Below, piece after piece: positions 22,013-64,000 of a stretch of 64,000 nucleotides of DNA (the stretch's first letter is position 1; every line of letters begins with the position of its first letter). The position numbers and the translations under genes were made by a program. Location of the stretch: contig CAZGXN010000003.1 in NCBI GenBank assembly GCA_964530135.1, forward strand, positions 42,942 to 106,941, given 5' to 3'. The notes below the pieces were generated by a model, which ran no database searches, had not been told where the DNA came from, and saw only the letters and a program-made list of their open reading frames with translations. Source of the DNA: an uncultured Bdellovibrionales bacterium. Its GTDB lineage: Bacteria > Patescibacteriota > Minisyncoccia > Moranbacterales > UBA1568.

Positions 22013-22022
22013 ACAGTTTCGT

Positions 22023-22439: not shown

Positions 22440-22685
22440 GCGATTGGTTACTGTAGAGGAAAACCATCACTCTGGCAAGACATTGTACCGACGCCTGTAT
22501 CCGTATTGTAACAGAGGATATCTGTGGATAACTGGAGGATAAGTCGTAAAAACTCATCCAATAGGTACCTAAATGGCCCATATAAACAAAATGGAGTGTC
22601 GAGGCTATTCGAGTACCATAAAATCACAACAAGGCTCTACGGTGATATAGTCGTAGAAAAATAAGCAAAGGATCCCTATGAAGTG

Positions 22686-22758
22686 TGGACCATACCGGAT
22701 TCGAACCGGTCACCCCTTCCATGCCATGGAAGTGCTCTACCAAATGAGCTAATGGCCC
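22686..22758 (-). tRNA. tRNA-Ala (anticodon GGC) with the G3:U70 identity pair.
   Basis: The reverse complement reads GGGCCAT TAGCTCATTTGGTAGAGCA CTTCC-ATGGCAT-GGAAG ...ACCGG-TTCGAAT-CCGGT ATGGTCC A. Confidence 0.8.
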
Positions 22759-22813
22759 AGAGGAAAAAAAAGTATAACACCTTATAATCATAGGGATATT
22801 CCCTATTTCGTCA

Positions 22814-24205
22814 ATGCTGGCAGGATGGCGTGCATGCGCTATACTGTATGACTGTATGAAAATAATTCGTAAATATCTTGAGGGTGTAGAGGCGGTGTTG
22901 GTCTATGCCTATATTTGGCAGATACCGTTTTCGTGGCGCTTTATTCTTGATCCAAACCGCAGCCAGAGAAGTGCTGGATTTAACGAATACATGGATATTT
23001 CCCTATACATAGGAGAGATTTTGCTTATTATTGCACTTCTTATACACATATTACGATACAATATAGAAAAGAAGTCAATATATAAAAATAGGTTTAAAGT
23101 ACTTATTTCTAAATTGTTCCACGTGGAACATCGAAAAAAAATATTTTTTATTGGAATAATAACCCTTGTATTACTGAATGTATTTTTCTCAATAGATTGT
23201 CCACTGACACTTATGTCGATATTCCATTGGATAAACTTTGCTTTTTTTGTACTTCTTATTAAAGGACTATATGTTTCACGTGGAACAATAATTATAAGCT
23301 CAATATTTTTTATATTATCAATTAGTGTCTTTTTACAAACCTTTGTTTCTTTAAATCAGGTTATTTATGGATCATCAATAGGTTTTAAGATGCTAAATGA
23401 ATCAATTCTTTCATTGCATGAAATAAATATTGCTAAATCAAATATTTTTTCGCACCTTATTCTCAGAGGATATGGCACATTTCCTCATCCAAACATATTG
23501 GCCGCCTATGCAGCATTTACTATCATATATGGAATTTTATTCAAAAAAATTATGTTCCACGTGGAACATTTATATCCAGTAACATTATTTTTCTCTACCT
23601 TTCTTATAATTCTCACTCAGTCAAAACTAACATTTATATTTATTACAATCATGTATCTCTATTTAGTGTTAAAAAACTATAAAAGAAGAAAATTGTTCCA
23701 CGTGGAACATCTGTATTTACTAGTAATAACGGTACTATTTCTTATTTTCTTTAGTTTTCTCTTTAAACAGGATATTTACAATTCGTTTAAAACAAGAGTG
23801 GATCAGTATAGAATCCAGTTAAGTCATCTAAATGTAACACTTTTTGGATCTGGTTTAGGAACATATCGTTTATCATACGATACCCAATCTGCTGATTGGT
23901 GGAACATGGAACCAATTCACTTCACTCCAATAATTGCATTATCAGAGATTGGGATAGCTTTGCTACTTTTCGGATCTTATGTGCTCTATAAATATATTAA
24001 AATTGTTCCACGTGGAACATGGATTGGCATTTCTTTACCGATGTTTTTTCTGGTGTTTATATTGGTCTTTGACCATTATGCCTGGGATATATACCAGGGA
24101 AATTTTCTTTTACTCTCTATATCACTTCTCATAGCCTATAGAGTAATAATTGACATAGATTATAAAAAGTGTTATAGTATTGATAACTTTAACAATCGAG
24201 ACTAG
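22814..24205 (+). CDS. Polytopic membrane protein (10 or more TM; O-antigen ligase/Wzy-like by topology only) in an AT-rich island. Its ORF is maintained across five embedded palindromic repeats.
   Basis: A 463-aa ORF is open in roughly 30% GC DNA, which argues for a real gene. It is hydrophobic throughout. The repeat-encoded peptides are LFHVEH, MFHVEH, LFHVEH, YVSRGT and IVPRGT. Confidence 0.6.
   Translation: MLAGWRACAILYDCMKIIRKYLEGVEAVLVYAYIWQIPFSWRFILDPNRSQRSAGFNEYMDISLYIGEILLIIALLIHILRYNIEKKSIYKNRFKVLISKLFHVEHRKKIFFIGIITLVLLNVFFSIDCPLTLMSIFHWINFAFFVLLIKGLYVSRGTIIISSIFFILSISVFLQTFVSLNQVIYGSSIGFKMLNESILSLHEINIAKSNIFSHLILRGYGTFPHPNILAAYAAFTIIYGILFKKIMFHVEHLYPVTLFFSTFLIILTQSKLTFIFITIMYLYLVLKNYKRRKLFHVEHLYLLVITVLFLIFFSFLFKQDIYNSFKTRVDQYRIQLSHLNVTLFGSGLGTYRLSYDTQSADWWNMEPIHFTPIIALSEIGIALLLFGSYVLYKYIKIVPRGTWIGISLPMFFLVFILVFDHYAWDIYQGNFLLLSISLLIAYRVIIDIDYKKCYSIDNFNNRD
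23115..23130. repeat. Palindromic repeat copy 1: TGTTCCACGTGGAACA, a perfect 16-bp palindrome with a CACGTG core, frame A.
   Basis: Read at line 23101 as aaaTTGTTCCACGTGGAACATcg. Confidence 0.9.
23272..23287. repeat. Palindromic repeat copy 2 (one substitution): TGTTTCACGTGGAACA, frame B.
   Basis: Read as atgtttcacgtggaacaat. It matches the consensus at 15 of 16 positions. Confidence 0.8.
23553..23568. repeat. Palindromic repeat copy 3: TGTTCCACGTGGAACA. Extended by its flanks, ATGTTCCACGTGGAACAT is an 18-bp perfect palindrome. Frame A.
   Basis: Read as ttATGTTCCACGTGGAACATtt. Confidence 0.9.
23694..23709. repeat. Palindromic repeat copy 4: TGTTCCACGTGGAACA, frame A.
   Basis: Read as aaaattgttccacgtggaacatctg. 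Confidence 0.9.
24004..24019. repeat. Palindromic repeat copy 5: TGTTCCACGTGGAACA, frame B. A half-site GTGGAACA lies at 23899-23906.
   Basis: Read as aaaattgttccacgtggaacatgg. The half copy is ggtGGAACAtgg. Confidence 0.9.
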
Positions 24206-24829
24206 TAATATTACTGGTTGTTATTTAAAACATGAGCTTTCTCTGTTTTGAACCTTTTTTAGAAATAATTTGAGAAAATTTTGTTTTTAAGGTATTTTAG
24301 GAAATTTCTAGCTTAATAAGCTACGTTTGAAGCAAAGTAATTTGTGAAATAGCTTGTTTGAGGGATAATTTATTCTTAAATAAAGGTGGAAAATTGTGAA
24401 GTGTGTACATTTGACTTCGGACTATATTGTTATATCAGACCTTTTTTGGGTAACTGGAGGGCTCAAGAAAGCCGTGTATAATCGTTTTTTAATCCCTTGG
24501 GTCGGTTTGGTGTGTAGAAGTTGAGTGGTAGTTGGTAAGTCTGGTGAGTTATCAGAGGAGTTGCTAAGTGTTGTAGCAATATATCCACACAAAACCCAGA
24601 TAAAAAATTTATTTCAACCAAATAGACAAGTCAAATCTATTTTTTATTGCCATTTTTAGGAGGGACATAAAAAGGGGTAATGTTTTGAAGTGTACGCCTG
24701 AATTATGTATTAGATGGCCGATTCTGATTATATGAACAGATATCGGATAAAAGGCTTTGGTGGACTCATATTGTTTTAAGGATGAGGCGACTGTTGCAAA
24801 AAAAATATTGTGATATACTTTCTTTATAT

Positions 24830-25825
24830 ATGGGAGTAATACACACAAAAAATAATTTGCGTTGGAGCATTTTTGTTTTTTCATTTCTCTGTCTTTTCAG
24901 TTCGGCGTTGTATGTTGCCGCTGATGAAACATCGACGACAGATACGATCGTTTTTGATGATGCTGATTCGGATAACCTCTCAAGTGAGGAAGAAAAAATT
25001 TATGGCACGGATCCGAGTGTGGCAGATACGGACGGTGATGGATATAGTGATGGGGTTGAAATTGAGGGAGGATTTGATCCATTGAAACCAGCGCCTGGGG
25101 ATCGAATGATACCGGACGAGGTGAAAACTGAAACGAGTGGAGAGGCTGTTGACGCAGCGTCGGTGAATCTGACAGAGGTGGCAGCGACCGGACTCGCAGG
25201 GTTTGTTTCGGAAAAAATGGATACAGATAAGGGATCGGAAGTAACATCCGATGACCTCAATTCCGTTATGGAAAATATCATGGCGGTGAGTGGAGAGGAA
25301 GTAGTGTTGCCGGAAATTGATACTGCTGCAATTAAGGTAAAGAAAATCTCAGCGAAGCTTTCGGAAGAAGAACGAAAAGAGCAGAATCGCCAAGATGTGA
25401 TTGAATATCTCACGCTGACGAGTTATATACTCATATCAAATGCGCCGGTGCAAATCCGAGATACACAAGCACTCAAAAGTTTTACAATGGATGCAGGGAG
25501 TAAGATGGTAGCGGGATTGCTTTCAGGAAATTATGATTACCTTGATACGATTGAAGAACGAGGCAAGAAGGCGCTCGATGAAGTGAGTAATGTAGAGGTG
25601 CCTGAGAGCATGATTGATACTCATGTGAAGACTATTAAAATGCTGACTTTTGCTTCGAATCTAAAACAATCAATTAAGGTAACCACTCGTCCAGATGATC
25701 CTCTTGGGCAGATGTATATGTTTTCAAAAGCGCAGGGCTTTCTCATGTCGCTCGGTGGCTTTATGCAAGAAACTCAAGGGAAGTTATCTGATATTGGTAT
25801 TGAGAACATCCCACTGGATATTTAA
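24830..25825 (+). CDS. Secreted protein with a thrombospondin type-3-like calcium-binding Asp repeat. The track ORF starts at 24782; the ATG at 24830 gives a signal peptide.
   Basis: MGVIHTKNNLRWSIFVFSFLCLFSSALYVAADE is followed by DTDGDGYSDGVEIEGGFDPL. The rest is acidic and low in complexity. Confidence 0.6.
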   Translation: MGVIHTKNNLRWSIFVFSFLCLFSSALYVAADETSTTDTIVFDDADSDNLSSEEEKIYGTDPSVADTDGDGYSDGVEIEGGFDPLKPAPGDRMIPDEVKTETSGEAVDAASVNLTEVAATGLAGFVSEKMDTDKGSEVTSDDLNSVMENIMAVSGEEVVLPEIDTAAIKVKKISAKLSEEERKEQNRQDVIEYLTLTSYILISNAPVQIRDTQALKSFTMDAGSKMVAGLLSGNYDYLDTIEERGKKALDEVSNVEVPESMIDTHVKTIKMLTFASNLKQSIKVTTRPDDPLGQMYMFSKAQGFLMSLGGFMQETQGKLSDIGIENIPLDI

Positions 25826-25829
25826 AGTT

Positions 25830-26906
25830 ATGCGTGAGCTAGGTCAAAAAAATCATTTGCGGAAATTCGTACTGATGGTTTTGATTGGTGCTATATTGAC
25901 GACGAGCTCGGCTCCATTACCAGTGCAGGCGGGTGTCTGGGGTGAGAGCATCGCGTCTACATTTCTCAAGGAAGCACTGGAATACATCGCAAGAAATATT
26001 CAGGCAGTGCTGCTCGGTATTGCAAAAAAGGTGGCGGTTACATTGGCAAGAGATGCAGCCAATCGACTGACAGCTGGTGGATCGTCCAAAAAGGCAGCCT
26101 TTATAACAGACTATAAACAGTATATTTATGATGCAGCTCTCGATGAAGGGCTCATCTATATGAATGATCTGCTCACCTCGGCGACGGGTGGCAAGAATTC
26201 AGCCCTCAATTATGTTGTCGCGGGTGGCCCGAGCCTCCAATCGTTGGGGATGAACTATATGAATTATCTGAATGCTGAGGTAAATGCAGCCTTTGTCAAT
26301 GATCGCTGTCGTTATACTCTCGATCAGTATACCCGCAATGTTACGGTTTCACTTGGAGAAGGGGACTGGCGCATACTGAACGCGGTCGTATCCAATGATT
26401 GTAATAACCCGCTTGGGATGAGTATCAATATCAAAAATAAAACACAGCAGAAAATCAATGCGCAGCAAGAAATCGCCAAGACAAAAGCCATCGCAAATAA
26501 GGGGTTTAAAGGAGTTGAAATCAATGGAAAAACAGTTTCTCCCGGGTCCATCATCGCTGATGTTACGGGGGCAGCGCAAAAACTTCCTTTTGAACTGATT
26601 GTTGGGTCAAAGGACTTCGCTGAGCTTCTGGCTGCTGCTGCTGGTACTTTTGCTAATACGGCGCTCAATAATCTCTATCAGCGTGGATTTGAACAGGTTT
26701 CACAAAATATCAGCCGCGAATTGGGGAAAGTGGACTCGCAAATCCGGGGTGCTCGGCAGAACTTGCAACAACAGCTTGGTCCCGGGTCGCAATTTCTCCG
26801 TAATGCCAATCAGCAACTGGGTGGTTGGAACGGTGCTTCGACCGCGGGGAAATATACAGGTGTACAGCAATCAAATATAAACTTCAACTCAGCCCCTGCT
26901 CCCTAG
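25830..26906 (+). CDS. Secreted hypothetical protein, starting 4 nt after the previous stop (operon). The track ORF starts at 25695; the ATG at 25830 gives a signal peptide.
   Basis: MRELGQKNHLRKFVLMVLIGAILTTSSAPLPVQAGVWG. It is rich in A/N/Q/G with no recognisable domain. Confidence 0.55.
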   Translation: MRELGQKNHLRKFVLMVLIGAILTTSSAPLPVQAGVWGESIASTFLKEALEYIARNIQAVLLGIAKKVAVTLARDAANRLTAGGSSKKAAFITDYKQYIYDAALDEGLIYMNDLLTSATGGKNSALNYVVAGGPSLQSLGMNYMNYLNAEVNAAFVNDRCRYTLDQYTRNVTVSLGEGDWRILNAVVSNDCNNPLGMSINIKNKTQQKINAQQEIAKTKAIANKGFKGVEINGKTVSPGSIIADVTGAAQKLPFELIVGSKDFAELLAAAAGTFANTALNNLYQRGFEQVSQNISRELGKVDSQIRGARQNLQQQLGPGSQFLRNANQQLGGWNGASTAGKYTGVQQSNINFNSAPAP

Positions 26907-52773: not shown

Positions 52774-54117
52774 TTGATTCTGCCGTATGCTACAGCTTGT
52801 AACTCTTGGGGGAAATCCCGGATGTGCCGCTCTCATTCAGATACTCGAGCGGGGCTAGGGGATTATCCTAACAGAAAGGGTGGACCTATTTTTTCACACT
52901 TGATATCTCGGGCCCGGCGTTCCTGGCGGAGCGTACGACAGCTGGTTGATTTTGCCCGTTGGAATACGGTTTTTCACCAGGGACAGACCCGATTTCTTGT
53001 CTGGTTCAAGGAAGGTTCCGGCTATATTCCGGTCATTCTTTTTCGTAAATATTCAACCTTTTCGCTCGTAGTTTCTTCGGCCCTCCTGGTCTCAGCGACC
53101 AATTACGGTCAAGAAGTCGGTGGTCTCGAGCGTCTCTCGGCCTCGCTCAATGTCAATCTGCCCAGTGAGAATCGCGTTGTGTTGCGCCGTGCGGCCCAAG
53201 AATCCCAGCAACATAATCTCTCACTTGTTTCATTGGCGGCGCCCTTGCTCGCGGCTGATATGTCCGTTCAGACGGAAACCAATGTTCTGGATGAGGCTTA
53301 TTTGTCGCCTGAAAATCAGATGTTTATCGCTCAGGCGGTAGGTGCCAATAGCGCTCGTGATCCTGAAGAAGATGGGGGCGTGAAAATCTACACCGTAGCA
53401 GCCGGTGATACGGTATCTGGCATCGCTGCGGTCCATGGGGTAACGGTCAATACGATTCTCTGGGCAAATGATCTCGACAATGTTGATTCGATCAGGCCGG
53501 GTGATCAGATCTTTATTTTGCCGGTTGCTGGATTCAACTATACAGTCAAAAGCGAAGATACAATTGACTCTATCGCTGCCAAGTATAAAGCGGACCGAAG
53601 CCGCATCATTGCCTATAATGGACTACCGGCTAATGGTGATCTGACGGCTGGAACAGAGCTTATTATCCCTGACGGAGTAAAAGAGAGCGCTCCAGCGGCA
53701 CCCGTAACCACAGGGTTGGCGCGACGCGAGTATGCATCACAGACAGGGAGTGGGGTCGCGACAGATATCACTCCGAGTTTTGCGCGGCCGCGTGAAGGGA
53801 AGATTGGGCAAGGGCATCGTTTTCCATATGGTTATTGCACCTGGTATGTCGCTCAGAAGCGATATGTCCCGTGGGGTGGCAATGCGGGTACCTGGCTCTA
53901 TAATGCGCGTGCCCAGGGCTACAAAACTGGAAAAACACCGACGGTGGGTTCAATTGTTGTAACGACTGAGAATCGGTTTTATGGGCATGTCGCACTGGTT
54001 GAGAAGGTGAGTGGCGATATGATCACAGTGTCTGAAATGAACTATACTGGCTGGGCAAAAAAAAGCGTGCGTCAATTATCTCGCTCGAGTCGGGTGATCA
54101 AGGGGTATATTTACTAG
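52774..54117 (+). CDS. Membrane-anchored peptidoglycan hydrolase with two LysM domains and a C-terminal CHAP amidase/peptidase domain. It is the likely VirB1-like lytic enzyme of the adjacent T4SS. The true start is probably internal.
   Basis: LysM 1 is YTVAAGDTVSGIAAVHGVTVNTILWANDL...GDQIFILP. LysM 2 is YTVKSEDTIDSIAAKYKADRSRIIAYNGL...GTELIIP. The CHAP domain is GYCTWYVAQKR...GHVALVEKV. Confidence 0.7.
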   Translation: MILPYATACNSWGKSRMCRSHSDTRAGLGDYPNRKGGPIFSHLISRARRSWRSVRQLVDFARWNTVFHQGQTRFLVWFKEGSGYIPVILFRKYSTFSLVVSSALLVSATNYGQEVGGLERLSASLNVNLPSENRVVLRRAAQESQQHNLSLVSLAAPLLAADMSVQTETNVLDEAYLSPENQMFIAQAVGANSARDPEEDGGVKIYTVAAGDTVSGIAAVHGVTVNTILWANDLDNVDSIRPGDQIFILPVAGFNYTVKSEDTIDSIAAKYKADRSRIIAYNGLPANGDLTAGTELIIPDGVKESAPAAPVTTGLARREYASQTGSGVATDITPSFARPREGKIGQGHRFPYGYCTWYVAQKRYVPWGGNAGTWLYNARAQGYKTGKTPTVGSIVVTTENRFYGHVALVEKVSGDMITVSEMNYTGWAKKSVRQLSRSSRVIKGYIY

Positions 54118-54322
54118 CTGATTTGTGGGAAAGGGTGGAGCGAAGACGGTTACAAGAATGAGTGGGGAGGATGGTGAGGCAAGAAAAGCAGCGGGTTTCA
54201 ATGCCTCTCCTTGAGTTTCAGCGCTTGATCCCCGCCACTCTCTTCTTTGTGTGTCCCAATCCTGTGGGCTTGTGGTATACTATTTTTGTATCCGATGTCG
54301 TCGTCTGTATCGCTGCGTACTT

Positions 54323-56338
54323 ATGCGTTGGGTGAAACAAAATACAAAAAAAATTCTCATTGGTTTTTTTGCGTGTGCACTCATTGTTCAGAGTGGTGCT
54401 GTTGCGGTCCAGCCAGTCTTTGCTACTGCCCCGACAGTTGGCAGTCAGATCGAAACCAGTGCTCAAGCGGCTGGCAATCCAAACTCCCCTCCGACCGGCA
54501 ATGAGATAGAGGGAGGTTGTTCCTGGTATAATTGGCTTGCCTGTGGTAAAGACCTTATCGTCTGGTTTTTGAAAGAGATCCGCGATCTTATCTATCGCGG
54601 TTTTGCTGTTCCGGCCGCGGCGGGATTTGCCTGGGCGCTGAATCCGGCCAATATCTCTGGACCGACTGGAGTGTTGAATCTCTCGGCAGTCTATACTCTC
54701 TGGCAGTTTATCCGAGATTTCTTCAATCTCTTTTTCATTCTCATCCTCCTTTTTTCGGCTTTTGCGACAGTTTTCCAGGTGGATAGTTTCAATATCCGCA
54801 ATATCTTCAAAAATGTCCTCTTGGTCGCACTGCTCATCAATTTCAGCTTTCCAATTACTCGATTTCTCATTGATGCGGCCAATGTGCCGATGTACTACTT
54901 CATCAATGATGTGATCGGTGATGGCACGGGGAATGGTGGTATGATCGCCATGAATAACATGCTCCGACACTCGGGTGCCGGCGCGGGCGCCATGGTTACT
55001 ACCGGAGACAACAGCAGTGTCGTCCAGATTCTCTTGTCGATTATTTTCGTTTTTTTATTTGGTATCTCGCTCCTGGTGTTGGCGGTGATGATGATTATCC
55101 GTCTCCTCGCGCTCACATTATTGCTGATCTTTTCACCGATTGGCTTTGCCTCGGCGCTGCTCCCGGGACTCAATGAATATGGCCAACGATGGTGGAGCAA
55201 CTTTTGGAACTATGCACTGTTTGGACCGGCGGCCGCGCTCATGCTCGTAGTGTCATTGAAGTTTCTCGAGGCGAGCGGATCACTCTTTACCTCGATGCAG
55301 CAGGTATCGACCAATGTCAGTGTCGACCCGAGCGGAGCTACTTCGGTGGCTCAGGTCATTTTCTTCACGATCCCGATTATCCTCATCTGGTTTACTATCG
55401 GCCTGGCGAGCAGGTTCAGTGTGGCTGGTGCCGCGACCGTCGTCGGCCTCGGCTATGGCGCCGCACATTGGACGCGGAAGAAGCTACAGAAAGGTGTGGG
55501 ATTTGTCGGCAAGAAGGTCGTCGTTAATCCTGTTACCAGGGGAGTGGGGAGCGGTATCGCCCAACGTTTCAATGACAACAAGATAGTGAAGTATGTAAAA
55601 TCTCCAGGCAAGGTTGAGGCGCGGATCAGAGGGGCTGTTGGTACTGGTACCGTCAGTGGAGAATTGGGTAAACTCCATGAGCAGCAGGTAAGGAGAGAGC
55701 TGGATGAATTGAAGAAGAACAAGGCGAGTTATTCTGAGGCTCGGGCGGGAATGACAAGTGGGAATCAGGCATCACGTCAGGCAAACGCAATGTATCTTGC
55801 TCAGAATGATGATATCCGAAACGCAAGTGATTTTAGAGATGGACTCGCTGCTATGGCGGGCAATGCAGAATTTACCAGTGAATTTGTTAAAAAATCTCAA
55901 GGAGCGATTGATAATGTTACGGACTTGGCGACAGCTCTCAATGCCCTGGGCACTGACAGCAAGACTGCCGCAGCAGTTATCGATAAGATAAATCCAGGCG
56001 CCCTCCCTGCGAATTCAGCTGACTATGCGTCAATCCTTGCAGCCCCAGCCTTTACTTCCCCAGCTTCACAGAAGCAACTTCAGAGTAAGATGAAGAAAGA
56101 GGGTCGGATAAGTTCAGTGATAGATCATGAGGTTAGGACGACAGGCGCGAGTATGGCTTCGGTGGTTGATCGCCATTTGGATAGCATGACAGTCGAAGAG
56201 ATAGCAAAACAAGATAGCTTACTTCGGAGCAATCCTGATGCGCACGGCTATGTACTCGGTCTAAGGACGAGTGACCCAGCAAAGTATCAAGAGATTAAAA
56301 ATAAGATGAAATCGGGTACAAGTGCATTGTTTCCGTGA
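54323..56338 (+). CDS. VirB6/TrbL-like polytopic inner-membrane T4SS channel protein with a hydrophilic C-terminal extension. The track ORF starts at 54251 with GTG; the ATG at 54323 gives a signal or TM start.
   Basis: MRWVKQNTKKILIGFFACALIV followed by at least 7 TM helices in a VirB6-like arrangement, then about 250 aa hydrophilic. It lies in an operon with the VirB4 gene. Confidence 0.55.
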   Translation: MRWVKQNTKKILIGFFACALIVQSGAVAVQPVFATAPTVGSQIETSAQAAGNPNSPPTGNEIEGGCSWYNWLACGKDLIVWFLKEIRDLIYRGFAVPAAAGFAWALNPANISGPTGVLNLSAVYTLWQFIRDFFNLFFILILLFSAFATVFQVDSFNIRNIFKNVLLVALLINFSFPITRFLIDAANVPMYYFINDVIGDGTGNGGMIAMNNMLRHSGAGAGAMVTTGDNSSVVQILLSIIFVFLFGISLLVLAVMMIIRLLALTLLLIFSPIGFASALLPGLNEYGQRWWSNFWNYALFGPAAALMLVVSLKFLEASGSLFTSMQQVSTNVSVDPSGATSVAQVIFFTIPIILIWFTIGLASRFSVAGAATVVGLGYGAAHWTRKKLQKGVGFVGKKVVVNPVTRGVGSGIAQRFNDNKIVKYVKSPGKVEARIRGAVGTGTVSGELGKLHEQQVRRELDELKKNKASYSEARAGMTSGNQASRQANAMYLAQNDDIRNASDFRDGLAAMAGNAEFTSEFVKKSQGAIDNVTDLATALNALGTDSKTAAAVIDKINPGALPANSADYASILAAPAFTSPASQKQLQSKMKKEGRISSVIDHEVRTTGASMASVVDRHLDSMTVEEIAKQDSLLRSNPDAHGYVLGLRTSDPAKYQEIKNKMKSGTSALFP

Positions 56339-56358
56339 TCCTTTAACATTGAATTGGT

Positions 56359-57510
56359 GTGAGTGGAGATACTGTAAAAAACATCCTTTTCTTTCCAATG
56401 CTTGTCTCTGAAAGTGGGACAGGTGAGGCTATGACGCCAGAAGTTTCGGAAGAATTATGGATGAAACTTCGAAATCTATCTCCTAATAAGCGAGACATTC
56501 TTGTCTGTCGAGAATTGCCCCAGAAGCTCCTGATTCTCAAGGAGAAGTTAAATTTGGATGAAAAAGCTATAGGCCGTATCAGTTTGGTGATTCGGAAGAT
56601 TTTTTTTAACGAACTTGATCTTGCTGGTGCTGAGGCTAAGATTGCTTCGATGCTTGGGGCGGGTGGAGCAGAGAATCCGAACCATGCTAAGGCTATTGTT
56701 GAGTTTATTAAAAAAGAAATACTAACCATTAAGCCAGTAAAAGAAGTCGTGCCAGATGAATCTTTGTCAAGTGAGCCAGTTATCAAAACCGCGCGGCTGC
56801 CGCTCCTCAAGGCGATGAGTGAGTACCCGCATTTGTCAGAACAACTCTTGACCAGAGAAAAGATCAAATTGAAATCATCGACGGAACCGGTGCGACCATC
56901 GCTTGGGAATTGGCTGAAGAGCTATCGTGAAGAGCTCGGTATCGGGTTCCATGAGCCAGTCAAGCGGGGAAATTTTCTCTTTCAATCCCAGAATGGCAAG
57001 CGTCTGTCCAATGAGGAGCGAGCGAGATTCAATCTCATCTTGAAGTCGGTCGAAGAGGAATTTCCGCTTGACATCGATACGGAACGCCAGGCAATAGTCT
57101 TTCCATCGTCTGGCGATGTGGCGATGGAGCTGACTCAGATCCGAACCAATCCATCCCAGCCTACTCCAAACAGGATGATTCGAGCACGGGGTCTGTCGAC
57201 CAGTCTACCGGCCTCTGAAACTACACCAGAAACATCTTCACCAACCGCCTTTCAGTCCTTCAAACCACTGTTTGCGAAATCAGTATCGCCGGAGAAGAAT
57301 GTTTCAGGTGAGACATTACATTTCTCTACAGGGCATGTGTTGCCAGCGGAACGCGAGGCGGGCGCTCCAACATCCGATGGGAGCGAGGCACTCCGTCAGA
57401 TGCAGCATCCGACGCAGGGTATTCGGCGTGAACCCAATCCAGCGCTTTCTCGGAGTCCGTACTCGATCCGTCCGCTCCGTCCTCGGAGTGGGGACAATGA
57501 AAACGCCTAG
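56359..57510 (+). CDS. Hypothetical soluble protein inside the T4SS-like operon, with a Pro/Ser/Thr-rich C-terminus.
   Basis: 383 aa. It starts 20 nt after the VirB6-like stop. No motif was recognised. Confidence 0.5.
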   Translation: MSGDTVKNILFFPMLVSESGTGEAMTPEVSEELWMKLRNLSPNKRDILVCRELPQKLLILKEKLNLDEKAIGRISLVIRKIFFNELDLAGAEAKIASMLGAGGAENPNHAKAIVEFIKKEILTIKPVKEVVPDESLSSEPVIKTARLPLLKAMSEYPHLSEQLLTREKIKLKSSTEPVRPSLGNWLKSYREELGIGFHEPVKRGNFLFQSQNGKRLSNEERARFNLILKSVEEEFPLDIDTERQAIVFPSSGDVAMELTQIRTNPSQPTPNRMIRARGLSTSLPASETTPETSSPTAFQSFKPLFAKSVSPEKNVSGETLHFSTGHVLPAEREAGAPTSDGSEALRQMQHPTQGIRREPNPALSRSPYSIRPLRPRSGDNENA

Positions 57511-57603
57511 CATTTTCTTCAACATGATATACTGCACAGTGTAGGTTGGATTTTTGTTTGTCGGAAAGATGAAACGAGGAAATAGTTTGAAACAAAAACC
57601 GTT

Positions 57604-57999
57604 ATGATGTTCAGCGTCCCCCAGTTTATTGATGTTGAAGACAAAATTGCTGGCCCACTCACTTGGCGTCAGTTGTTGTGGATGATCGGGATGGGGATTC
57701 TTCTCCTCGTCATATACAATACTATCGGTACAGCTGGTTTTTTGATTGTGGCGGTCCCGATTGTCTTACTGTTTTGTGCCCTAGCCTTTTATCGGCCACA
57801 GGGTCAACCGCTCATTGTGTTTCTCTTCCATGGATTTACCTATTTCTTCCGGCCGAAAATTGCTGTCTGGGAGCGCCCAATAGCCCGCCGCCAGGCAGCT
57901 CCTGAGGTTGAAGCTGCTCCCGTGAAAGCAGCGGCGAAAGCCAAACAGCTTTCACCAGAAGCTCTCCGCGATTTGGCTCGGCTCATGGACACCCACTAG
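57604..57999 (+). CDS. PrgI/VirB3-like small two-TM T4SS protein.
   Basis: 131 aa. MMFSVPQFIDVEDKIAGPLTWRQLLWM is followed by two TM helices and a basic tail. It sits immediately upstream of VirB4, as VirB3/PrgI does. Confidence 0.5.
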   Translation: MMFSVPQFIDVEDKIAGPLTWRQLLWMIGMGILLLVIYNTIGTAGFLIVAVPIVLLFCALAFYRPQGQPLIVFLFHGFTYFFRPKIAVWERPIARRQAAPEVEAAPVKAAAKAKQLSPEALRDLARLMDTH

Positions 58000-58008
58000 T
58001 TTTCATGT

Positions 58009-58683
58009 ATGGAATTTCTCTCTAAGAAAAAATCTGGCAGTTTGAGTACACAGCGATATGTCGATGTCGAAGAGCTGCGTGATGGCGTTCTCGTTCTCAA
58101 AACCGGAGCGCTGCGGGCGGTACTCCTTGTCTCATCGATTAATTTTGATCTGAAATCGAGCGAAGAACAGGATGCGATTATTTCTCAGTATCAGAATTTC
58201 CTCAATTCACTGGATTTTCCCATTCAAATTGTCGTGCAGTCTCGCCGGTTCAATATCGATCCGTATATCGAACTCCTCCGTGGGAAAGAGGCACAGCAGG
58301 CCAATGAGCTCCTTCGATTCCAGATGAAAGAGTACCAAAGCTTTATCAGGAACCTGACGGATGTTTCGAATATTATGTCGAAGTATTTTTATGTTGTTGT
58401 ACCATTTTCACCAGTTGAAAATGTCGAGACGGGATTTTTCGGAAAAATGGGAGACATTTTCAATCAGCGGAAAACCGTCGGCCTCAAAAATGAATTGTTT
58501 GATACCTACCGAACACAGATCATGCAGCGCGTCGAACATATTGTCGCGGGTCTTTCTCCGATGGGAATCCGCGCAACAGCCCTGGGCACCGAAGAATTGA
58601 TCGAGCTCCTCTACAATAGTTATAATCCATCACTCTTTGCATCAACGATCGTGAAAAATGTCGAGGCGATTGAGCTCCAGTAA
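58009..58683 (+). CDS. VirB4-family N-terminal domain encoded as a separate ORF (the N-terminal piece of a split VirB4).
   Basis: 224 aa. VDVEELRDGVLVLKTGALRAVLLVSSINFDLKSSEEQDAIISQYQNFLNSL resembles the N-terminus of Gram-positive VirB4 proteins (TraE/PrgJ). It ends with TAA at 58681-58683. Confidence 0.55.
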   Translation: MEFLSKKKSGSLSTQRYVDVEELRDGVLVLKTGALRAVLLVSSINFDLKSSEEQDAIISQYQNFLNSLDFPIQIVVQSRRFNIDPYIELLRGKEAQQANELLRFQMKEYQSFIRNLTDVSNIMSKYFYVVVPFSPVENVETGFFGKMGDIFNQRKTVGLKNELFDTYRTQIMQRVEHIVAGLSPMGIRATALGTEELIELLYNSYNPSLFASTIVKNVEAIELQ

Positions 58684-58687
58684 ACTT

Positions 58688-60919
58688 ATGGGACGAGAAC
58701 TGATTATTTTTGACCGGCCAATCAAGAAAGTATCCGTGGTTGATCCGATGAATATCGCGACCCCTGGTCTTGGTGAGCTTTCTGTACCGCCTCGCTCACG
58801 TGGCCAAGCGGGAGCCGCCCTGCCATCCGCGCGTGCCACAAATGCCGATGGAGTCCGGCCACCCCAGCCAGATGATACTGTGCTGCCGACCGACATCCAC
58901 TCAGAGAAAGTGGCATCAGCTCCAGCGAGTCCAGTTTCGCGTCGAGCGCCAGAGCCACGCGAGACAGTCTCAGCTCCTGATCGAGGAGGAAGGCTTGCCC
59001 CACCAGAAAAGAATCGCGCCGTCTGGGCAGAGGAGGTTGTGGCCCAGGCTTTTCCAGTTGATAATCCATCGACTATCAAGTCGGAGAAAAAGAGTTTTCT
59101 TGGGAGTCTTTTTGGAAAAAAATCCCAGACCCCAGTTTTGGATACAAATCGGGAAACAGAACAGCTCTATCAGAAGGGTCTGGCAACGATCCGTGATCTC
59201 ATTGCTCCGCCAGCGATTCGAGTGAGTCCAGCGACCATGCAGATCGGCGATGTCGTCGCTCGGACACTGTTCATCATCGCGTACCCGCGGTTTCTTTCGA
59301 CCAATTGGTTTTCTCCGATTATCAATATCGACTTTCCGATGGATACGGCGCTGTTCATTCATCCGATAGATACAGCTGAAATCCTGAAACAACTCCGTAA
59401 ATCCGCGACCCAGGTGCAATCACAGATGAATATCGAAATTGAGGAGGGGAAGATCCGCGACCCAGTACTTGAGGCGGCGCTTCAAAATATTGAAGAATTG
59501 CGTGATCGTCTCCAGCAAGGGACAGAAAAGTTCTTTCGCTTTGGTCTCTATATGACGCTCTATGGGGCAGATGAGAAAGATCTCTCCCAAAAAGTGCAGT
59601 CGATTGAAGCGATTCTTGAGGCGCAGCTCGTGTATACCAAACCCGCTGTCTTGCGAATGGATGTTGGGTTTGCGTCGACTCGACCGCTGGCCAATGATGC
59701 ACTGGATGTGGCCAATAACCTCAACACTGAGCCGCTTTCGACTACTTTCCCCTTTGTCTCTTCAGATCTCTCCTCCAATGAGGGTATCCTGTATGGCATC
59801 AACCGGCATAACAATTCGCTTATTCTGTTTGATCGGTTCAAGATGGAAAATGCCAATATGGTGGTCTTTGCAAAGTCTGGTGCGGGTAAGAGCTATACGG
59901 TAAAACTTGAAGTTTTGCGGGCGCTCATGCTCGATACAAGCGTTATTATTATTGATCCAGAAAATGAATATAAGCATCTCTGTGAGACGGTCGGTGGAGC
60001 CTTTCTGAAAATTTCTCTCAACTCGGATATTCATCTCAATCCGTTTGATATGCCGAAAGTCGGTGCGGAAGAAGAGTCAGATGGCGTTTTCCGAAACACT
60101 ATTGCCAATCTCATCGGACTTCTCCACCTCATGCTCGGGACTTTATCAGCCGAAGAAGATTCGATCTTGGACCAGGCTATCCGTGAGGCGTATGCGATTC
60201 GTGATATTCACGAAGATTCAAATTTCGGCGCATTGCTTCCGAATTCCTTTCCAACAATGTCTGATCTGCATGCAGTCCTGAAGAATATGGAGGGTGCGGA
60301 TTCGATTGCTGCTCGACTGCGACGCTATACAGAGGGTATTTTCTCGGGTTTTCTGAATGAGCAGACGAATATCGATACGGATAACCAGCTTGTTGTCTTC
60401 AATATTCGAGATCTGGAAGAGGAACTCCGTCCGATTGCGATGTATATCATCCTTCAGTACATCTGGAATGATATTCGCTCAAAGCTTCGCCAACGCATCA
60501 TCGTCGTCGATGAGGCCTGGATCATGATGCAAAATGAGGATGCAGCCTCGTTCCTATTTGGCATCGCCAAGCGCTGCCGCAAGTACTACACTGGTCTTAC
60601 GACGATCACTCAGGACATCAGCGACTTTATGTCTTCGCGCTACGGCAAGCCGATTATCACCAACTCTTCGATGCAGCTGCTCCTCCGTCAATCACCCGCA
60701 TCGATTGACTATATCACCGAGACTTTTTACTTGACGGATCATGAGAAGTTTCTTCTGCTCGAGTCGAATGTGGGGGAAGGAATTTTCTTTGCCGGGACAA
60801 AACACGCCGCTATAAAAGTCATTGCTTCATATAGTGAAGATCAGATTATCACTTCGGACCCGCGTCAGCTTCTCGAAATTGAAGAAGCGAAGCGCGACTT
60901 CGATTCCAACAACCCTTAA
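58688..60919 (+). CDS. VirB4/TrbE/CagE-family T4SS ATPase (central and C-terminal ATPase domains) with a roughly 130-aa Pro/Ala/Ser/Arg-rich low-complexity N-terminal segment. The track ORF starts at 58658; the ATG at 58688 lies 4 nt after the upstream stop.
   Basis: Walker A is FAKSGAGKSYTVK. Walker B is RIIVVDEAWIMM. The middle region QIGDVVARTLFIIAYPRFLSTNWFSPIIN is VirB4-like. The reading frame differs from that of 58009..58683. Confidence 0.8.
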   Translation: MGRELIIFDRPIKKVSVVDPMNIATPGLGELSVPPRSRGQAGAALPSARATNADGVRPPQPDDTVLPTDIHSEKVASAPASPVSRRAPEPRETVSAPDRGGRLAPPEKNRAVWAEEVVAQAFPVDNPSTIKSEKKSFLGSLFGKKSQTPVLDTNRETEQLYQKGLATIRDLIAPPAIRVSPATMQIGDVVARTLFIIAYPRFLSTNWFSPIINIDFPMDTALFIHPIDTAEILKQLRKSATQVQSQMNIEIEEGKIRDPVLEAALQNIEELRDRLQQGTEKFFRFGLYMTLYGADEKDLSQKVQSIEAILEAQLVYTKPAVLRMDVGFASTRPLANDALDVANNLNTEPLSTTFPFVSSDLSSNEGILYGINRHNNSLILFDRFKMENANMVVFAKSGAGKSYTVKLEVLRALMLDTSVIIIDPENEYKHLCETVGGAFLKISLNSDIHLNPFDMPKVGAEEESDGVFRNTIANLIGLLHLMLGTLSAEEDSILDQAIREAYAIRDIHEDSNFGALLPNSFPTMSDLHAVLKNMEGADSIAARLRRYTEGIFSGFLNEQTNIDTDNQLVVFNIRDLEEELRPIAMYIILQYIWNDIRSKLRQRIIVVDEAWIMMQNEDAASFLFGIAKRCRKYYTGLTTITQDISDFMSSRYGKPIITNSSMQLLLRQSPASIDYITETFYLTDHEKFLLLESNVGEGIFFAGTKHAAIKVIASYSEDQIITSDPRQLLEIEEAKRDFDSNNP

Positions 60920-60924
60920 ACGCT

Positions 60925-61695
60925 ATGGCCGAGGATATTGATTCGGCGTTTGAACAGCTCCACCAGAGCAAATGGATGCAACTTCGGAACGCTACTCGTC
61001 TGGCTTTTGAACACCGGAAGAGAGTGGCGGCTGGTGATTTGTCGGTCTTCATTCTGCCATTAGCTCTGGCCATGGCTAAAGACGGACTTTTGGACTTCAT
61101 TCCGTTTATCGGGTTATTTTTCGGGCTTTTTATCACTACATACCTCTTTATTTTCATGTGGGGTCGGGGTCGGTGGATACTGCGCATCCTCTTCTTCTTT
61201 GTGGCTACTGTCGGTAATCTTCCTTTCATCAAACTCTTGCCTTTTGATACGATCAGCGTTCTCTTCGCTTATTTCTTGGCACGCAAAGATGTGGCAAAGG
61301 CCAAAGAGAAATTGGAGAAAGTTAATCAGGTGATACCGCGGCTGGCGGATGATCTCCGCGGTGTGGCGCGCCAGCGTGCGCGGGCCCAAGAGGCGGCCCA
61401 AGAGGCAGAGGCATCCGCTGCCCAAAGCGCTGCCCAGATGGATACAGCATCTCGCTCGCCTGAACGGTTAGTGGGAGCTGCTCCAGTACTCGCTGTCCCT
61501 CGGGGACAGGTAATACCTTCTCGTTCGGACCAGGCGACTGCGCTTCGTCATAGTCAAAGCGCGGTTAACGAAGCTACCTTGAGAATACAAGCTGCGGGAC
61601 GTCAATTGGCTCAGAGTTCTCTGGCGTATACAGCGGGTATGCGCCAGTCTGGAGCACCAAGAGGGGTTTCGGAAAAGCGGCAACGAGCGGTTTAA
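60925..61695 (+). CDS. Membrane protein in the T4SS-like operon (3 to 4 TM) with an Ala/Gln-rich coiled-coil C-terminus.
   Basis: 256 aa. It starts 6 nt after the VirB4 stop. TM helices are LSVFILPLALAMA, IPFIGLFFGLFITTYLFIFMW and ILFFFVATVGNLPFI. Confidence 0.5.
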   Translation: MAEDIDSAFEQLHQSKWMQLRNATRLAFEHRKRVAAGDLSVFILPLALAMAKDGLLDFIPFIGLFFGLFITTYLFIFMWGRGRWILRILFFFVATVGNLPFIKLLPFDTISVLFAYFLARKDVAKAKEKLEKVNQVIPRLADDLRGVARQRARAQEAAQEAEASAAQSAAQMDTASRSPERLVGAAPVLAVPRGQVIPSRSDQATALRHSQSAVNEATLRIQAAGRQLAQSSLAYTAGMRQSGAPRGVSEKRQRAV

Positions 61696-61790
61696 TCAGT
61701 AGAACCGTCACAGAAGGTGATCGGTTGGCTCAGAGTGATAGTCCTTTGTCCTATCAGTGTATAATAAGGAAGTAAAGCAGCTTTGTTTCT

Positions 61791-62453
61791 ATGGAACACT
61801 GGATGCGTCTGGTCATGCGGCACAAAGAGTTCATCGGCACTACGACGGTTGTAGTGGCGGCTATCTTTTTACTTGGGTACTTTCCAGAAAGTGAGAATGT
61901 GAGCCCGACACTGGAAAACTTTATAGTTGCGACTGGTGTGTTCTTGGTCATTCCGTTTGCCTATTGTAGAATAATGTTAGGGCGTTCTTTTTCAGCAATT
62001 GGGTTTCAGCGGGGGAATATCTGGGCTGGTGTAGGTGGAGGTCTCTTGGCGCTCATCGTCGCGCTAGCTGCTCTCTTCGTGCTCTGGAATTTTACCCCCT
62101 TACTCGCCGACTATCGTCTGCCCGTTATCGTCGAGGAGCAGTTTCTTTTCTTCGTTCTGTATGAAGTGTTTCTGAGCGGGTCTATCGTTTTCATGTTCGA
62201 GGTGTTCTTTCGAGGGTTTGTTATGCTGCTGTGGCTCCGGAAATGGGGCATCTGGTCTGTCGTCGCTCAGGCCGTTCTTTTCGGAACATTGATGTATGCT
62301 GGAAATGACCTGAGTGCGACGATGATTCCCTATCTTATCTTTGCCCCGTTCGCTGGTCTGATCGCTTATCAGTCCCGATCGATCTGGTACAGTTATGGGG
62401 CAGCGTGGTTCTATCTTTTTTTGACGGATGCCATCGTCCTTATCTTCCGCTGA
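61791..62453 (+). CDS. Polytopic membrane protein, possibly CPBP/Abi-family-like (weak).
   Basis: 220 aa with 6 TM helices. There is an E...R motif (FEVFFRG), but the canonical His motifs are not evident. Confidence 0.4.
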   Translation: MEHWMRLVMRHKEFIGTTTVVVAAIFLLGYFPESENVSPTLENFIVATGVFLVIPFAYCRIMLGRSFSAIGFQRGNIWAGVGGGLLALIVALAALFVLWNFTPLLADYRLPVIVEEQFLFFVLYEVFLSGSIVFMFEVFFRGFVMLLWLRKWGIWSVVAQAVLFGTLMYAGNDLSATMIPYLIFAPFAGLIAYQSRSIWYSYGAAWFYLFLTDAIVLIFR

Positions 62454-62455
62454 TT

Positions 62456-64000
62456 ATGTCGCGTACTATGCACAGAAAAAAACAGTTTCAACTCATTTCA
62501 GTTTTGATGAGTTTGCAGATATTTTTTACATCTGCACTACCGGCCGAAGCGCTTTTTTCTCGTCCGAGGGTGCCATCAGCCTCCCAATCCGCCTCTGAGC
62601 TCGAGGCACGCTATCATATCAATACTGGTGCGGTTCAGGAACAGGGCGAATCACTGAATGTCGCGGATAACAAAAAGGTTACGCCTGAAGTATCGCTTTT
62701 TTTCTCGCCTTCGGATCCCAAAGAAGGGGAGAGGGTAACAGCACGCTCTTTTCCAACTTATTTTGCCAACGATACAAGCAAGCTCTATTTTACTTGGTTC
62801 TTGCAAAGAGCTGACTGTCGACCGGGTAGCGCGGTTACGCCGCAGTGCGATCTCGATGGTAATGGTCTCATCAATCACAATGATTGGAAAATCATGGCCC
62901 ATCGGATCCTGGCATCCAATGATCTCGATTTGGCCAATGTCGGCTATGGAGCAGATACCGATGCCGATGGTTATACGGCCCGTTTCGGCGGAGACAATCG
63001 AGTCAATGTCCCCAACCACTGCTATTTCCATGACAATACGACTGGCGAGAACTATGAACTCTCAAGCGGCAGTGGTACAACCTCTTGGGCCTGTAATCCT
63101 GGACTCCAGCCGGTCTGTATGGTCGGGAGTATCGATGTGTCTTCCGGGACGCTGGATCTCAGTGCGGGTGGAGGGACATCAGATGCTTCGGGGAGCGGAT
63201 CGACTGGCGGTACGGCAACCGCGAGTGGTTCGGTAGTTGAGTTTATCGATGGAGATGCGTATGTCTCAGGCCTGCCCTATTGTCAGGCGAGCGGAGTGCC
63301 GGCTTGCGCTACGGGTGTGCCTTGCTGTGTCTCCAATCCAGCGACGGCCCGTGAGTGTACCCAAACCCTCGACACATGCAGTTTGCCAGTGGGCAGTCGG
63401 CCTAATCCGATTTGTCGCCACCTCTTTCCAGTAGCACCGGGCCATGTCGCGGGTGATGGGCTCTATAGTGCGAGTGAAGAGCAGTTTTGGCAAACTGATC
63501 CCAATGACCCTGATACGGCCGATAATGGGAACAAGGATGAGGCTAATATCACTGGTCTCGGGCGCGATACTTTCACCTGGAACTACATCTCAGGTGATCG
63601 TATCGGAGTCGTTGTCGAAGGTACCTCGATGATTCCAACCAAACACCAGGATTCTTCCAATGGCATCATGTGGGCGTTTTCTAAGAATCGCTGTCAGCCC
63701 TCTGGTCCAACAGGATCATACACGACAAACATCAAAGGATACGCTGTGGTTATTCCGACTATCGACATGGACCTCAACGACTGTCTCGAAGATAATCTCG
63801 TCGATCCGACTGAAGGTGGTCAAGCGACGAATCTGGAGCTCTCCGTTACAGCCTCGCCGGATGACCCGCTGAATGATGTGACCGTTCGGGCAGATGGAGA
63901 TGTTCTTGATGTGGTGGCCACGGTGAATAATGCCATCCAGGGTATCCAAGGGATCTACTATGATTGGCGGGTTGAATTGTCGTCTGATGGAACGGCAAAT
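62456..64000 (+). CDS. Partial CDS (more than 515 aa; the 3' end is beyond the window). It is a large secreted or surface protein with an EF-hand/dockerin-like calcium-binding loop and Cys-rich segments. It is absent from the ORF track because there is no in-window stop.
   Basis: ATG at 62456, 3 nt after the previous stop. The signal peptide is MSRTMHRKKQFQLISVLMSLQIFFTSALPAEA. DLDGNGLINHND fits the DxDxNGxIxxxD pattern. Hand translation finds no stop through position 64000. Confidence 0.6.
   Translation, partial: MSRTMHRKKQFQLISVLMSLQIFFTSALPAEALFSRPRVPSASQSASELEARYHINTGAVQEQGESLNVADNKKVTPEVSLFFSPSDPKEGERVTARSFPTYFANDTSKLYFTWFLQRADCRPGSAVTPQCDLDGNGLINHNDWKIMAHRILASNDLDLANVGYGADTDADGYTARFGGDNRVNVPNHCYFHDNTTGENYELSSGSGTTSWACNPGLQPVCMVGSIDVSSGTLDLSAGGGTSDASGSGSTGGTATASGSVVEFIDGDAYVSGLPYCQASGVPACATGVPCCVSNPATARECTQTLDTCSLPVGSRPNPICRHLFPVAPGHVAGDGLYSASEEQFWQTDPNDPDTADNGNKDEANITGLGRDTFTWNYISGDRIGVVVEGTSMIPTKHQDSSNGIMWAFSKNRCQPSGPTGSYTTNIKGYAVVIPTIDMDLNDCLEDNLVDPTEGGQATNLELSVTASPDDPLNDVTVRADGDVLDVVATVNNAIQGIQGIYYDWRVELSSDGTAN

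Follow-up and report, generated by a model that had tools for sequence, protein, structure and literature searches.

The window, that is, the whole stretch of 64,000 nucleotides analyzed here, ends within a cluster of nine ORFs (g1 to g9) in the same direction on the + strand, which runs from 52.8 kb to beyond the window end, at the window-equivalent position 65,305. An earlier sequence-only reading had described eight co-directional genes continuing to the window end; the direction holds, but the number becomes nine since the two VirB4 halves are separate ORFs. The coordinates below are those of the longest ORFs, and alternative starts come from gene calls on an identical 145-kb contig. All ORFs of the module are intact. 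Junctions of 4-20 nt had been proposed throughout, and five of the eight are indeed short, with at most 20 nt between the longest ORFs or at most 59 nt considering the gene-call start of g3, but the gaps g1/g2, g3/g4 and g7/g8 are longer (93-205 nt). The operon structure is unproven, since the promoter and terminator scans of the module were no better than the shuffled background.

The first gene (g1, 52774..54117; gene-call start 52822, 431 aa) encodes a LysM-LysM-CHAP peptidoglycan hydrolase. Pfam matches for LysM (two copies, 1.4e-21) and CHAP (1.5e-18), together with an NCBIfam match to the PcsB-type CHAP region, agree with the wall hydrolase of VirB1-like role proposed before. It adjoins xer in 51 related loci among the best 80 of 483, with a median identity of 58%. 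The next product (g2, 54251..56338; gene-call start 54323, 671 aa) is a VirB6-like polytopic membrane protein, for which hydropathy predicts a signal anchor, 6-7 TM helices and a C-terminal hydrophilic domain of ~300 aa. It had been called VirB6/TrbL-like, but the TrbL part was not sustained: the Pfam TrbL hit is below the cutoff (E 0.03) and only one of 35 homologues matches that family. Partial support comes from the NCBIfam CD3337/EF1877 family of conjugation (mobilome) membrane proteins, matched by g2 with E 0.001 and by 10 of the 35 homologues (best E 1.3e-8); three of the 35 match pLS20_p028 and one the Bacteroides TraJ. A profile search of PDB sequences with g2 retrieved no match. The topology fits VirB6, and the assignment at the sequence level is weak.

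A conserved, predicted cytoplasmic protein without a family follows (g3, 56359..57510; gene-call start 56398, 370 aa), in line with its previous description as a soluble protein of no recognisable family. It has one helical and one alpha/beta domain, and its disordered tail carries two short motifs that are conserved. The small g4 product (57604..57999), with two TM helices, was correctly recognised as PrgI/VirB3-like: it matches Pfam PrgI with 42.9 bits (7.3e-11; cutoff 27) and also TcpE (5.6e-6). The gene ends 9 nt upstream of g5, and a PrgI gene is found directly upstream of the VirB4 genes in 75 loci of the best 80 of 483.

VirB4 is encoded by two ORFs, as had been noticed from the letters. 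The first (g5, 58009..58683) is a TrsD-like protein corresponding to the N-terminal domain of VirB4 in its own gene: it covers positions 5-151 of the CD1110 VirB4 profile, matches the NCBIfam models VirB4_plasma (7.4e-10) and TrsD/TraD (3.2e-7), and its precomputed Pfam assignment is TraC-like (PF26593). The second (g6, 58658..60919; gene-call start 58688, 743 aa) is the ATPase core of the MPF_FATA/CD1110 type, matching NCBIfam conju_CD1110 at profile positions 176-730 (3.6e-106, 356 bits, cutoff 325) and Pfam P-loop_TraG (8.5e-31). A low-complexity linker of ~155 aa, rich in P, A and R, precedes the core, and the translation shows the motifs Walker A (GAGKS) and Walker B (VVDEAW). Identities of g6 vary from 64 to 85% across the best 80 of 483 loci. 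We consider the split real and not the result of a frameshift or sequencing error, because a stop codon lies between the g5 and g6 ORFs in 79 of 79 loci, in all three relative frames.

Two polytopic membrane proteins come after VirB4, as previously proposed. The first (g7, 60925..61695) is small, with a low-complexity tail, and had been said to lack a recognisable family, as g3; searches against Pfam, NCBIfam and PDB sequences gave no match. Of the best 80 of 483 loci, 77 have an ORF of 105-1047 aa at the same place after VirB4, and these ORFs have in common a KDxLDF...P motif. The second (g8, 61791..62453) is CPBP/Abi-like. It matches NCBIfam MrtA with 1e-5, but its 25.9 bits stay far below the cutoff of 200, and no Pfam family was matched. 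An active CPBP protease was considered and rejected, since the catalytic motifs of CPBP (CAAX/Abi) proteins (EExxxR, FxxxH and HxxxN) are not found conserved across 39 aligned sequences: E..FFRG is the sole invariant motif, the position of the first Glu is Tyr, and there is no invariant His. From this alignment, g8 is probably not a canonical protease. It was found in 64 loci of the best 80 of 483 and is immediately 5' of g9 wherever both occur.

The last ORF (g9, from 62456 to the window end at 64000 and up to the equivalent of 65305) encodes a surface protein of 945-949 aa, of which the window holds the N-terminal 515 aa. Ca-binding-like loops occur in a Cys-rich region, Ig-like beta-sandwich domains stand in tandem, and besides a signal peptide the protein has a TM helix at its C-terminus, which indicates that it is anchored to the surface rather than released. 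It had been presented as a giant secreted EF-hand/dockerin-like protein of more than 515 aa. The length bound is correct, while neither the giant size nor the release is; Pfam reveals no EF-hand or dockerin domain, but a DxDxDGxIxxED loop is present in the consensus of the family.

Upstream of the module the genes are housekeeping ones (PNPase, LspA, ComM, KsgA, UbiA, PcrA and Xer), with the tyrosine recombinase (Xer) divergent and adjoining g1. Downstream, the same contig contains an XRE HTH gene and an aaRS, and the relatives have the CCA enzyme and IF-2. Related loci were found 483 times and our counts rest on the best 80, whose records are labelled mostly as Patescibacteria lineages; the remainder, 33 TPA assemblies named "Bdellovibrionales", one Fimivivens and some with generic or other labels, have the same locus. 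The order pcrA-xer-CHAP-...-VirB4-...-surface protein is maintained in ~65 of these best 80 of 483, and this order-wide synteny with pcrA and xer indicates vertical inheritance.

No relaxase, VirD4/TcpA coupling protein or VirB11 turned up in the ORF scan, which took in every window ORF of 330 aa or longer, some shorter ORFs and the 10 kb preceding the window, or in the gene tables from 18 kb before the window start to 3.5 kb past its end, ~85 kb in total. The absence noted from the window is thus sustained and holds for its flanks as well, and a coupling protein could be encoded elsewhere in the genome, beyond the ~85 kb seen. The only T4SS-DNA_transf/VirD4-like signals are sub-threshold and fall on the P-loop of VirB4 itself. 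Within the module we recognised neither a VirB8-like protein nor a VirB2-like pilin; the sole pilin-domain gene is a PF18895 (T4SS_pilin) fusion at 708-2096, 50 kb away.

This composition resembles that of monoderm conjugative T4SSs of the MPF_FATA class (pGO1/pSK41 Trs, pCF10 Prg/Pcf and the C. difficile CTn CD1110 family) in the CD1110-type VirB4, PrgI, the CHAP wall hydrolase, a putative polytopic channel protein related to CD3337/EF1877 and the lack of an outer-membrane core; pGO1 also has VirB4 split into TrsD- and TrsE-like proteins. Unlike them, the module has no relaxase, VirD4/TcpA, recognisable VirB8-like protein or PrgB-type adhesin, shows no mobile-element borders and is vertically inherited in a reduced genome. 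The Helicobacter pylori ComB and archaeal Ced systems are likewise driven by a VirB4 with no coupling protein, relaxase or VirB11. However, ComB is a diderm system with VirB7/9/10, which have no homologues here, and from Ced no CedA-like genes were recognised, the CedB model reaching 49.5 bits against a cutoff of 700.

The closest correspondence is with the T4SS of the Patescibacteria clade, which has been described as derived from monoderm conjugation, with TrsD beside VirB4, no relaxase and a non-conjugative role (Wang et al. 2023, PMC10633639; Quinonero-Coronel et al. 2025, PMC12102498) and is reviewed in PMC12857230. The same composition was reported in 2,417 Patescibacteria genomes, TrsD adjoining virB4 in 1,664 cases, a relaxase being present in only 103 of the genomes, T4CP rarely near virB4, and KsgA often near it (PMC12102498). 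As in those loci (PMC12102498, PMC10633639), the module belongs to a CPR bacterium, is chromosomal and has an MPF_FATA-type VirB4 with a separate TrsD-like gene beside it, PrgI/VirB3 and KsgA nearby, while its neighbourhood contains neither relaxase nor T4CP. Their VirB6 may be represented by the VirB6-like g2, and with the Paceibacteria T4SS the module shares a VirB1 analogue bearing LysM near virB4. The comparison with reported loci suggested earlier therefore gives a match, including Ca. Southlakia epibionticum SEML1_0006-0019. In contrast, many of the published loci have VirB2-like pilins near virB4 and this module has none; it lies ~61 kb from dnaA and not within 20 genes of it; and its Moranbacteria-specific accessories (g3, g7, the CPBP-like g8 and the Ig-like surface protein g9) go unmentioned in PMC12102498 and PMC10633639, which state that no adhesin was detected.

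We are confident that the region is the core chromosomal T4SS of a Candidatus Moranbacteria (Patescibacteria/CPR), belonging to a Patescibacteria-specific lineage derived from MPF_FATA that lost its DNA-processing parts. The proposal of a minimal monoderm-type T4SS lacking relaxase, coupling protein and VirB11 was thus borne out by gene content and housekeeping flanks. The novelty it implied was not, as the separate TrsD-like gene, PrgI, VirB6, LysM-bearing VirB1 analogues and missing relaxase are already in PMC12102498 and PMC12857230. Because the system was described in papers of 2023-2025, this is a further example of the T4SS known from ultrasmall Patescibacteria and not a discovery. A literature search combining Moranbacteria and T4SS returned nothing specific, and only the lineage-specific g3, g7, g8 and Ig-like surface protein g9 are modestly new details.

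The divergent tyrosine recombinase adjoining the first gene and a VirB4 of the type common in ICEs could be what is left of a decayed element, with mating-pore genes kept beside an integrase after loss of the relaxase and T4CP. We regard this as highly improbable. Across the order, the module keeps its synteny with the recombinase and PcrA, whose identities are housekeeping-like, and Xer is kept at 56-84% identity in 52 loci of the best 80 of 483; it is a conserved chromosomal neighbour and not the integrase of an element. The VirB4 core has a median identity of 77% against 59% for PcrA and is the more conserved of the two in 24 of 28 loci, which points to vertical inheritance under strong selection, and no ORF is disrupted. 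GC content is average for the genome (0.495 in the module, 0.484 in the window), the longest flanking direct repeat has 10 nt where shuffled sequence gives 9.8 on average, so that no att-like repeats above chance flank the module, and no tRNA adjoins it. Synteny, GC content and the lack of flanking repeats led us to discard the ICE remnant.

A role in DNA uptake or cell contact had been preferred over conjugation. The non-conjugative part stands, since a machine with no relaxase or coupling protein nearby is not expected to conjugate, but nothing in the sequence is behind the preference for DNA uptake. ComM and Xer, which had been taken as its support, are housekeeping neighbours not linked to the module: ComM is 7 kb away with five genes between, one of them on the opposite strand, and Xer is a conserved neighbour on the chromosome. 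By analogy with Helicobacter ComB or archaeal Ced, the module might be a machine importing DNA or RNA from the host to feed a nucleotide-auxotrophic epibiont, which we see as possible rather than probable. T4CP, relaxase and VirB11 are absent as in ComB-type importers, import of host DNA or macromolecules was hypothesised in PMC12102498, and a 2026 preprint (10.64898/2026.06.21.733656) describes a cultivated relative that feeds on host RNA, with T4SS-pilus-like tubes at the interface. However, neither direction nor substrate is indicated by the sequence, CedD reaches only 19 bits and the CedB score is far below its cutoff, and in Southlakia the comEC-dependent competence is separate and non-essential, its authors leaning to protein export or another role (PMC10633639). 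Another possible rather than probable reading is that proteins such as effectors or toxins are exported to the surface or the interior of the host cell, or that the machine mainly assembles a pilus or adhesin needed for attachment. The conserved Ig-like surface protein of Ca-binding type in the cluster and the T4SS_pilin-domain protein in the genome are consistent with it, some T4SSs devoid of T4CP (Ptl, Brucella VirB) export proteins (PMC12857230), and export was suggested by Wang et al. (PMC10633639). On the other hand, we identified no candidate effector or secretion signal, the pilin gene is outside the module, and g9, with a Sec signal peptide of its own and a TM anchor, can be exported without help from the T4SS.

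Taken as the core T4SS of this lineage, the module most likely serves contact-dependent traffic of macromolecules between host cell and epibiont. Proteins might be exported, or nucleic acids or other macromolecules of the host imported, and we see the two as about equally plausible. In the working model, every functional step of which we infer, the CHAP/LysM hydrolase g1 would open the wall locally, and the membrane channel would be made of the VirB6-like g2 and probably also of g7, the small membrane protein. PrgI/VirB3 (g4) and the TrsD-like N-domain (g5) would be the docking partners that bring the VirB4 ATPase (g6) to the membrane, and there the ATPase would power assembly and translocation. 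The cell-surface or contact element would be g9, Ig-like, Ca-binding and anchored by its C-terminus, together with its CPBP-like partner g8, and g3 would be a cytoplasmic accessory. By their conserved adjacency, g3, g7, g8 and g9 are putative parts of the machine. That all four are real structural parts, with g9, beside its degenerate CPBP-like partner g8, as the adhesin for host contact or the extracellular conduit in a T4SS that has no pilin and takes in macromolecules of the host, seems to us unlikely.

The homologous cluster of one saccharibacterium, Ca. Southlakia epibionticum, which also has no coupling and relaxase proteins, is essential for epibiotic growth (PMC10633639), the only species for which this requirement is known, and the T4SS of Patescibacteria is the first reported to be essential for its own bacterium. 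The present locus brings no new principle, but it is a clean and syntenic example from Moranbacteria, in which a conserved surface protein and its membrane partner stand where other lineages have pilin arrays. This makes g8 and g9 usable candidates for studies of host contact in the Paceibacteria branch.

Between 52.8 kb and the window end, an ORF scan and profile searches against Pfam and NCBIfam gave nine consecutive ORFs (g1 to g9) on the + strand, and on these results the earlier sequence-only reading of a minimal type IV secretion system (T4SS)-like module is essentially correct, apart from four corrections. As proposed there, g1 (52774 or 52822-54117) is a LysM-LysM-CHAP hydrolase, with Pfam matches to LysM, twice (E 1.4e-21), and CHAP (1.5e-18), and g4 (57604-57999) is a PrgI/VirB3-like protein, with 42.9 bits against a Pfam cutoff of 27. 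A split VirB4 ATPase is encoded by g5 (58009-58683), of the TrsD/TraD family, which matches the N-terminal positions 5-151 of VirB4 models, and g6 (58658-60919), which matches positions 176-730 of the CD1110 VirB4 model (356 bits, NCBI cutoff 325) and has both Walker A and Walker B intact. Profile searches were empty for g3 (56359-57510) and g7 (60925-61695), the two components described as lacking a recognisable family, and for g9 (62456 to the window end), while g8 (61791-62453) has only a faint CPBP (MrtA) match. The junctions, described as 4-20 nt, measure 93-205 nt in three of eight cases. The VirB6/TrbL-like channel protein g2 (54251 or 54323-56338) is a weak assignment, with a sub-threshold TrbL/VirB6 match (E 0.03) and a weak CD3337/EF1877 match (E 0.001). 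Beyond the window end we used a 145-kb ENA contig that encodes g3 and is identical to the window across 17,603 overlapping bases; there, g9 stops at window-equivalent 65,305. With 945-949 aa it is not the giant it was taken for, and it is membrane-anchored through a C-terminal TM helix rather than freely secreted.

The VirB4 split is genuine. A stop codon separates the halves in all 79 related loci holding both, the second ORF being in frame 0, +1 or +2 relative to the first, and the two ORFs tile the VirB4 profile with zero overlap. The g6 N-terminus (58688-59150) is a Pro/Ala/Arg-rich low-complexity stretch of about 155 aa ahead of the VirB4 core, differing in length and sequence among relatives. 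Since in most loci its frame nevertheless remains uninterrupted as far back as the TrsD-like gene's stop codon, it is probably a translated flexible linker.

Relatives of g6 were found in 483 loci (one genome per species scanned), and the best 80 are mostly from Candidatus Moranbacteria/Moraniibacteriota or other Patescibacteria MAGs, the rest having other or generic labels. About 65 of these 80 share the gene order of the window: pcrA, xer (opposite strand), CHAP (g1), VirB6-like (g2), g3, PrgI, the N- and C-terminal VirB4 ORFs, a small membrane ORF, g8 and g9. In a distant subgroup (retrieved loci L070-L081), PrgI, both VirB4 ORFs and the small membrane ORF stay together, and this block sits 5-7 kb upstream of pcrA-xer-CHAP. 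Compared with the window proteins, median identity is 77% for the VirB4 core, 67% for Xer, 64% for the TrsD-like part, 59% for PcrA, 58% for CHAP, 53% for PrgI, 46% for g9, 42% for g3, 41% for g8 and 35% for g2. A mobile element was considered and rejected on the synteny, on the conservation of VirB4, higher than that of PcrA in 24 of 28 loci, on a GC content of 0.495, treated as equal to the 0.484 of the window, and on the direct repeats common to both module flanks, the longest being 10 nt, as in shuffled sequence. Judged from these comparisons, the module is a core locus passed on vertically. The Moranbacteria-type locus occurs, in full synteny and with VirB4 identity of up to 84%, in many TPA MAG records whose title is "uncultured Bdellovibrionales bacterium" (L003, L004, L007 and others), and these organism labels are probably wrong.

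Among 35 g2 homologues, 10 match the Firmicutes CD3337/EF1877 conjugation membrane protein family (best 1.3e-8), three match pLS20_p028 and one matches Bacteroides TraJ; together with the 6-7 predicted TM helices of g2, this speaks for a VirB6-type role, though only at the level of the family. The C-terminal tail of g3 (57130-57507) is disordered and variable except for two short, highly conserved motifs, KNVAGETLHFSTGHVLPAEK and RSPYSIRPLR, which resemble docking peptides that a partner protein would bind. Directly 3' of VirB4, 77 of the 80 loci encode a small polytopic protein of a rapidly evolving set that includes g7; these proteins have a common KDxLDF...P motif and no match in Pfam, NCBIfam or PDB sequences. 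In L004 (12329-15190) and L013 (11845-14988, both in locus coordinates) the gene in this position is enlarged to 953 and 1047 aa: the usual N-terminal membrane part is followed by a long stretch of low complexity and by an additional globular region at the C-terminus, for which Pfam has no match. The E..FFRG motif is kept in g8, but not the conserved histidines of CPBP proteases.

Upstream of the module lie PNPase, YraN, LspA, ComM, an RpfB-like protein, KsgA, UbiA, PcrA and XerC/D. The remaining window ORFs scanned (all those of at least 330 aa and a few shorter; ribonucleotide reductase, ThrRS, FtsH, TilS, S1, GyrA and a DHH phosphoesterase, for example) are housekeeping, cell-surface or family-less, with the single exception of a pilin-domain protein at 708-2096, and include no relaxase, VirD4 or VirB11, as had been stated. 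The 10 kb preceding the window contain polysaccharide genes and the jag-yidC-rnpA-rpmH-dnaA cluster (L084, same contig), the presumed replication origin, about 8 kb (8-10 kb) before window position 1. On the other side, the ENA contig continues after g9 with a small HTH gene of XRE type and the gene of a class II aminoacyl-tRNA synthetase, within a stretch of GC 0.385 (L082 18909-21113, window-equivalent 65306-67510). The closest relatives have a CCA-adding enzyme, IF-2 and DUF4446 downstream; since the first two occupy this place in them, the module has a rearrangement point at its right border. A relaxase or VirD4 just outside the window would have made the module an ordinary conjugative element; neither was found in the flanks, and the genes examined, from about 85 kb in all, include no relaxase, VirD4/TcpA coupling protein or VirB11.

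The 708-2096 protein (- strand, 462 aa) has a signal peptide, two Cys-rich repeats and a T4SS_pilin domain (PF18895, E 8.7e-8, above cutoff) with two TM helices; its C-terminal region carries a LAS/M15-peptidase-like H..D ... HxH motif. It is an unusual pilin fusion, whose gene lies 50 kb away from the T4SS module and some 10 genes from dnaA. Another stretch (22000-26000), of low GC (0.36-0.39 vs about 0.49), adjoins tRNA-Arg and tRNA-Ala. It encodes a membrane protein resembling Wzy_C (22814-24205) and a Ca-binding protein with TSP3 repeats (24782-25825), and is possibly a variable island of surface-polysaccharide genes.

In 3,035 Patescibacteria genomes, Quinonero-Coronel et al. 2025 (PMC12102498) found VirB4 in 2,417, almost always within a single clade inside MPF_FATA. 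The VirB4 N-domain homologue TrsD was the commonest partner (adjoining virB4 in 1,664 cases), PrgI/VirB3 and VirB6 homologues were present too, and LysM-bearing VirB1 analogues were virB4-associated chiefly in Paceibacteria. In 1,135 assemblies virB4 had VirB2-like pilins nearby, and KsgA and dnaA were often close to it; only 103 genomes had a relaxase, and T4CPs were mostly distant from virB4. These authors proposed import of host DNA or other macromolecules. The homologous cluster of Ca. Southlakia epibionticum, without recognisable coupling and relaxase proteins, was essential for epibiotic growth by Tn-seq, and protein export or something else was suggested (Wang et al. 2023, PMC10633639). 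A 2025 FEMS review (PMC12857230) classes systems of this kind as a new group of T4SSs. The window locus fits these descriptions feature by feature. It differs from loci with VirB2-like pilins near virB4 in having no pilin genes in the module, and from many Paceibacteria, where dnaA is reportedly within 20 genes, in lying about 61 kb from dnaA, since the origin cluster is about 8 kb before the window start.

By homology, g1 would cut the wall, g2, perhaps with g7, would form the channel, and g4 and g5 would tether the g6 ATPase, which would power assembly and translocation; for an external contact element the best candidate is g9, together with g8. That relaxase and T4CP are absent speaks against conjugation and supports the non-conjugative T4SS proposed earlier. 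ComM and Xer were also cited in favour of DNA uptake, an argument that fails because ComM is five genes off, with a gene on the opposite strand in between, and Xer belongs to the conserved chromosomal neighbourhood. DNA uptake is an already published and unproven hypothesis for this system. The locus is thus a further member of the Patescibacteria T4SS and no new kind, its sole modestly new detail being a conserved Moranbacteria accessory set (g3, g7, g8 and g9) in a pilin-less module.
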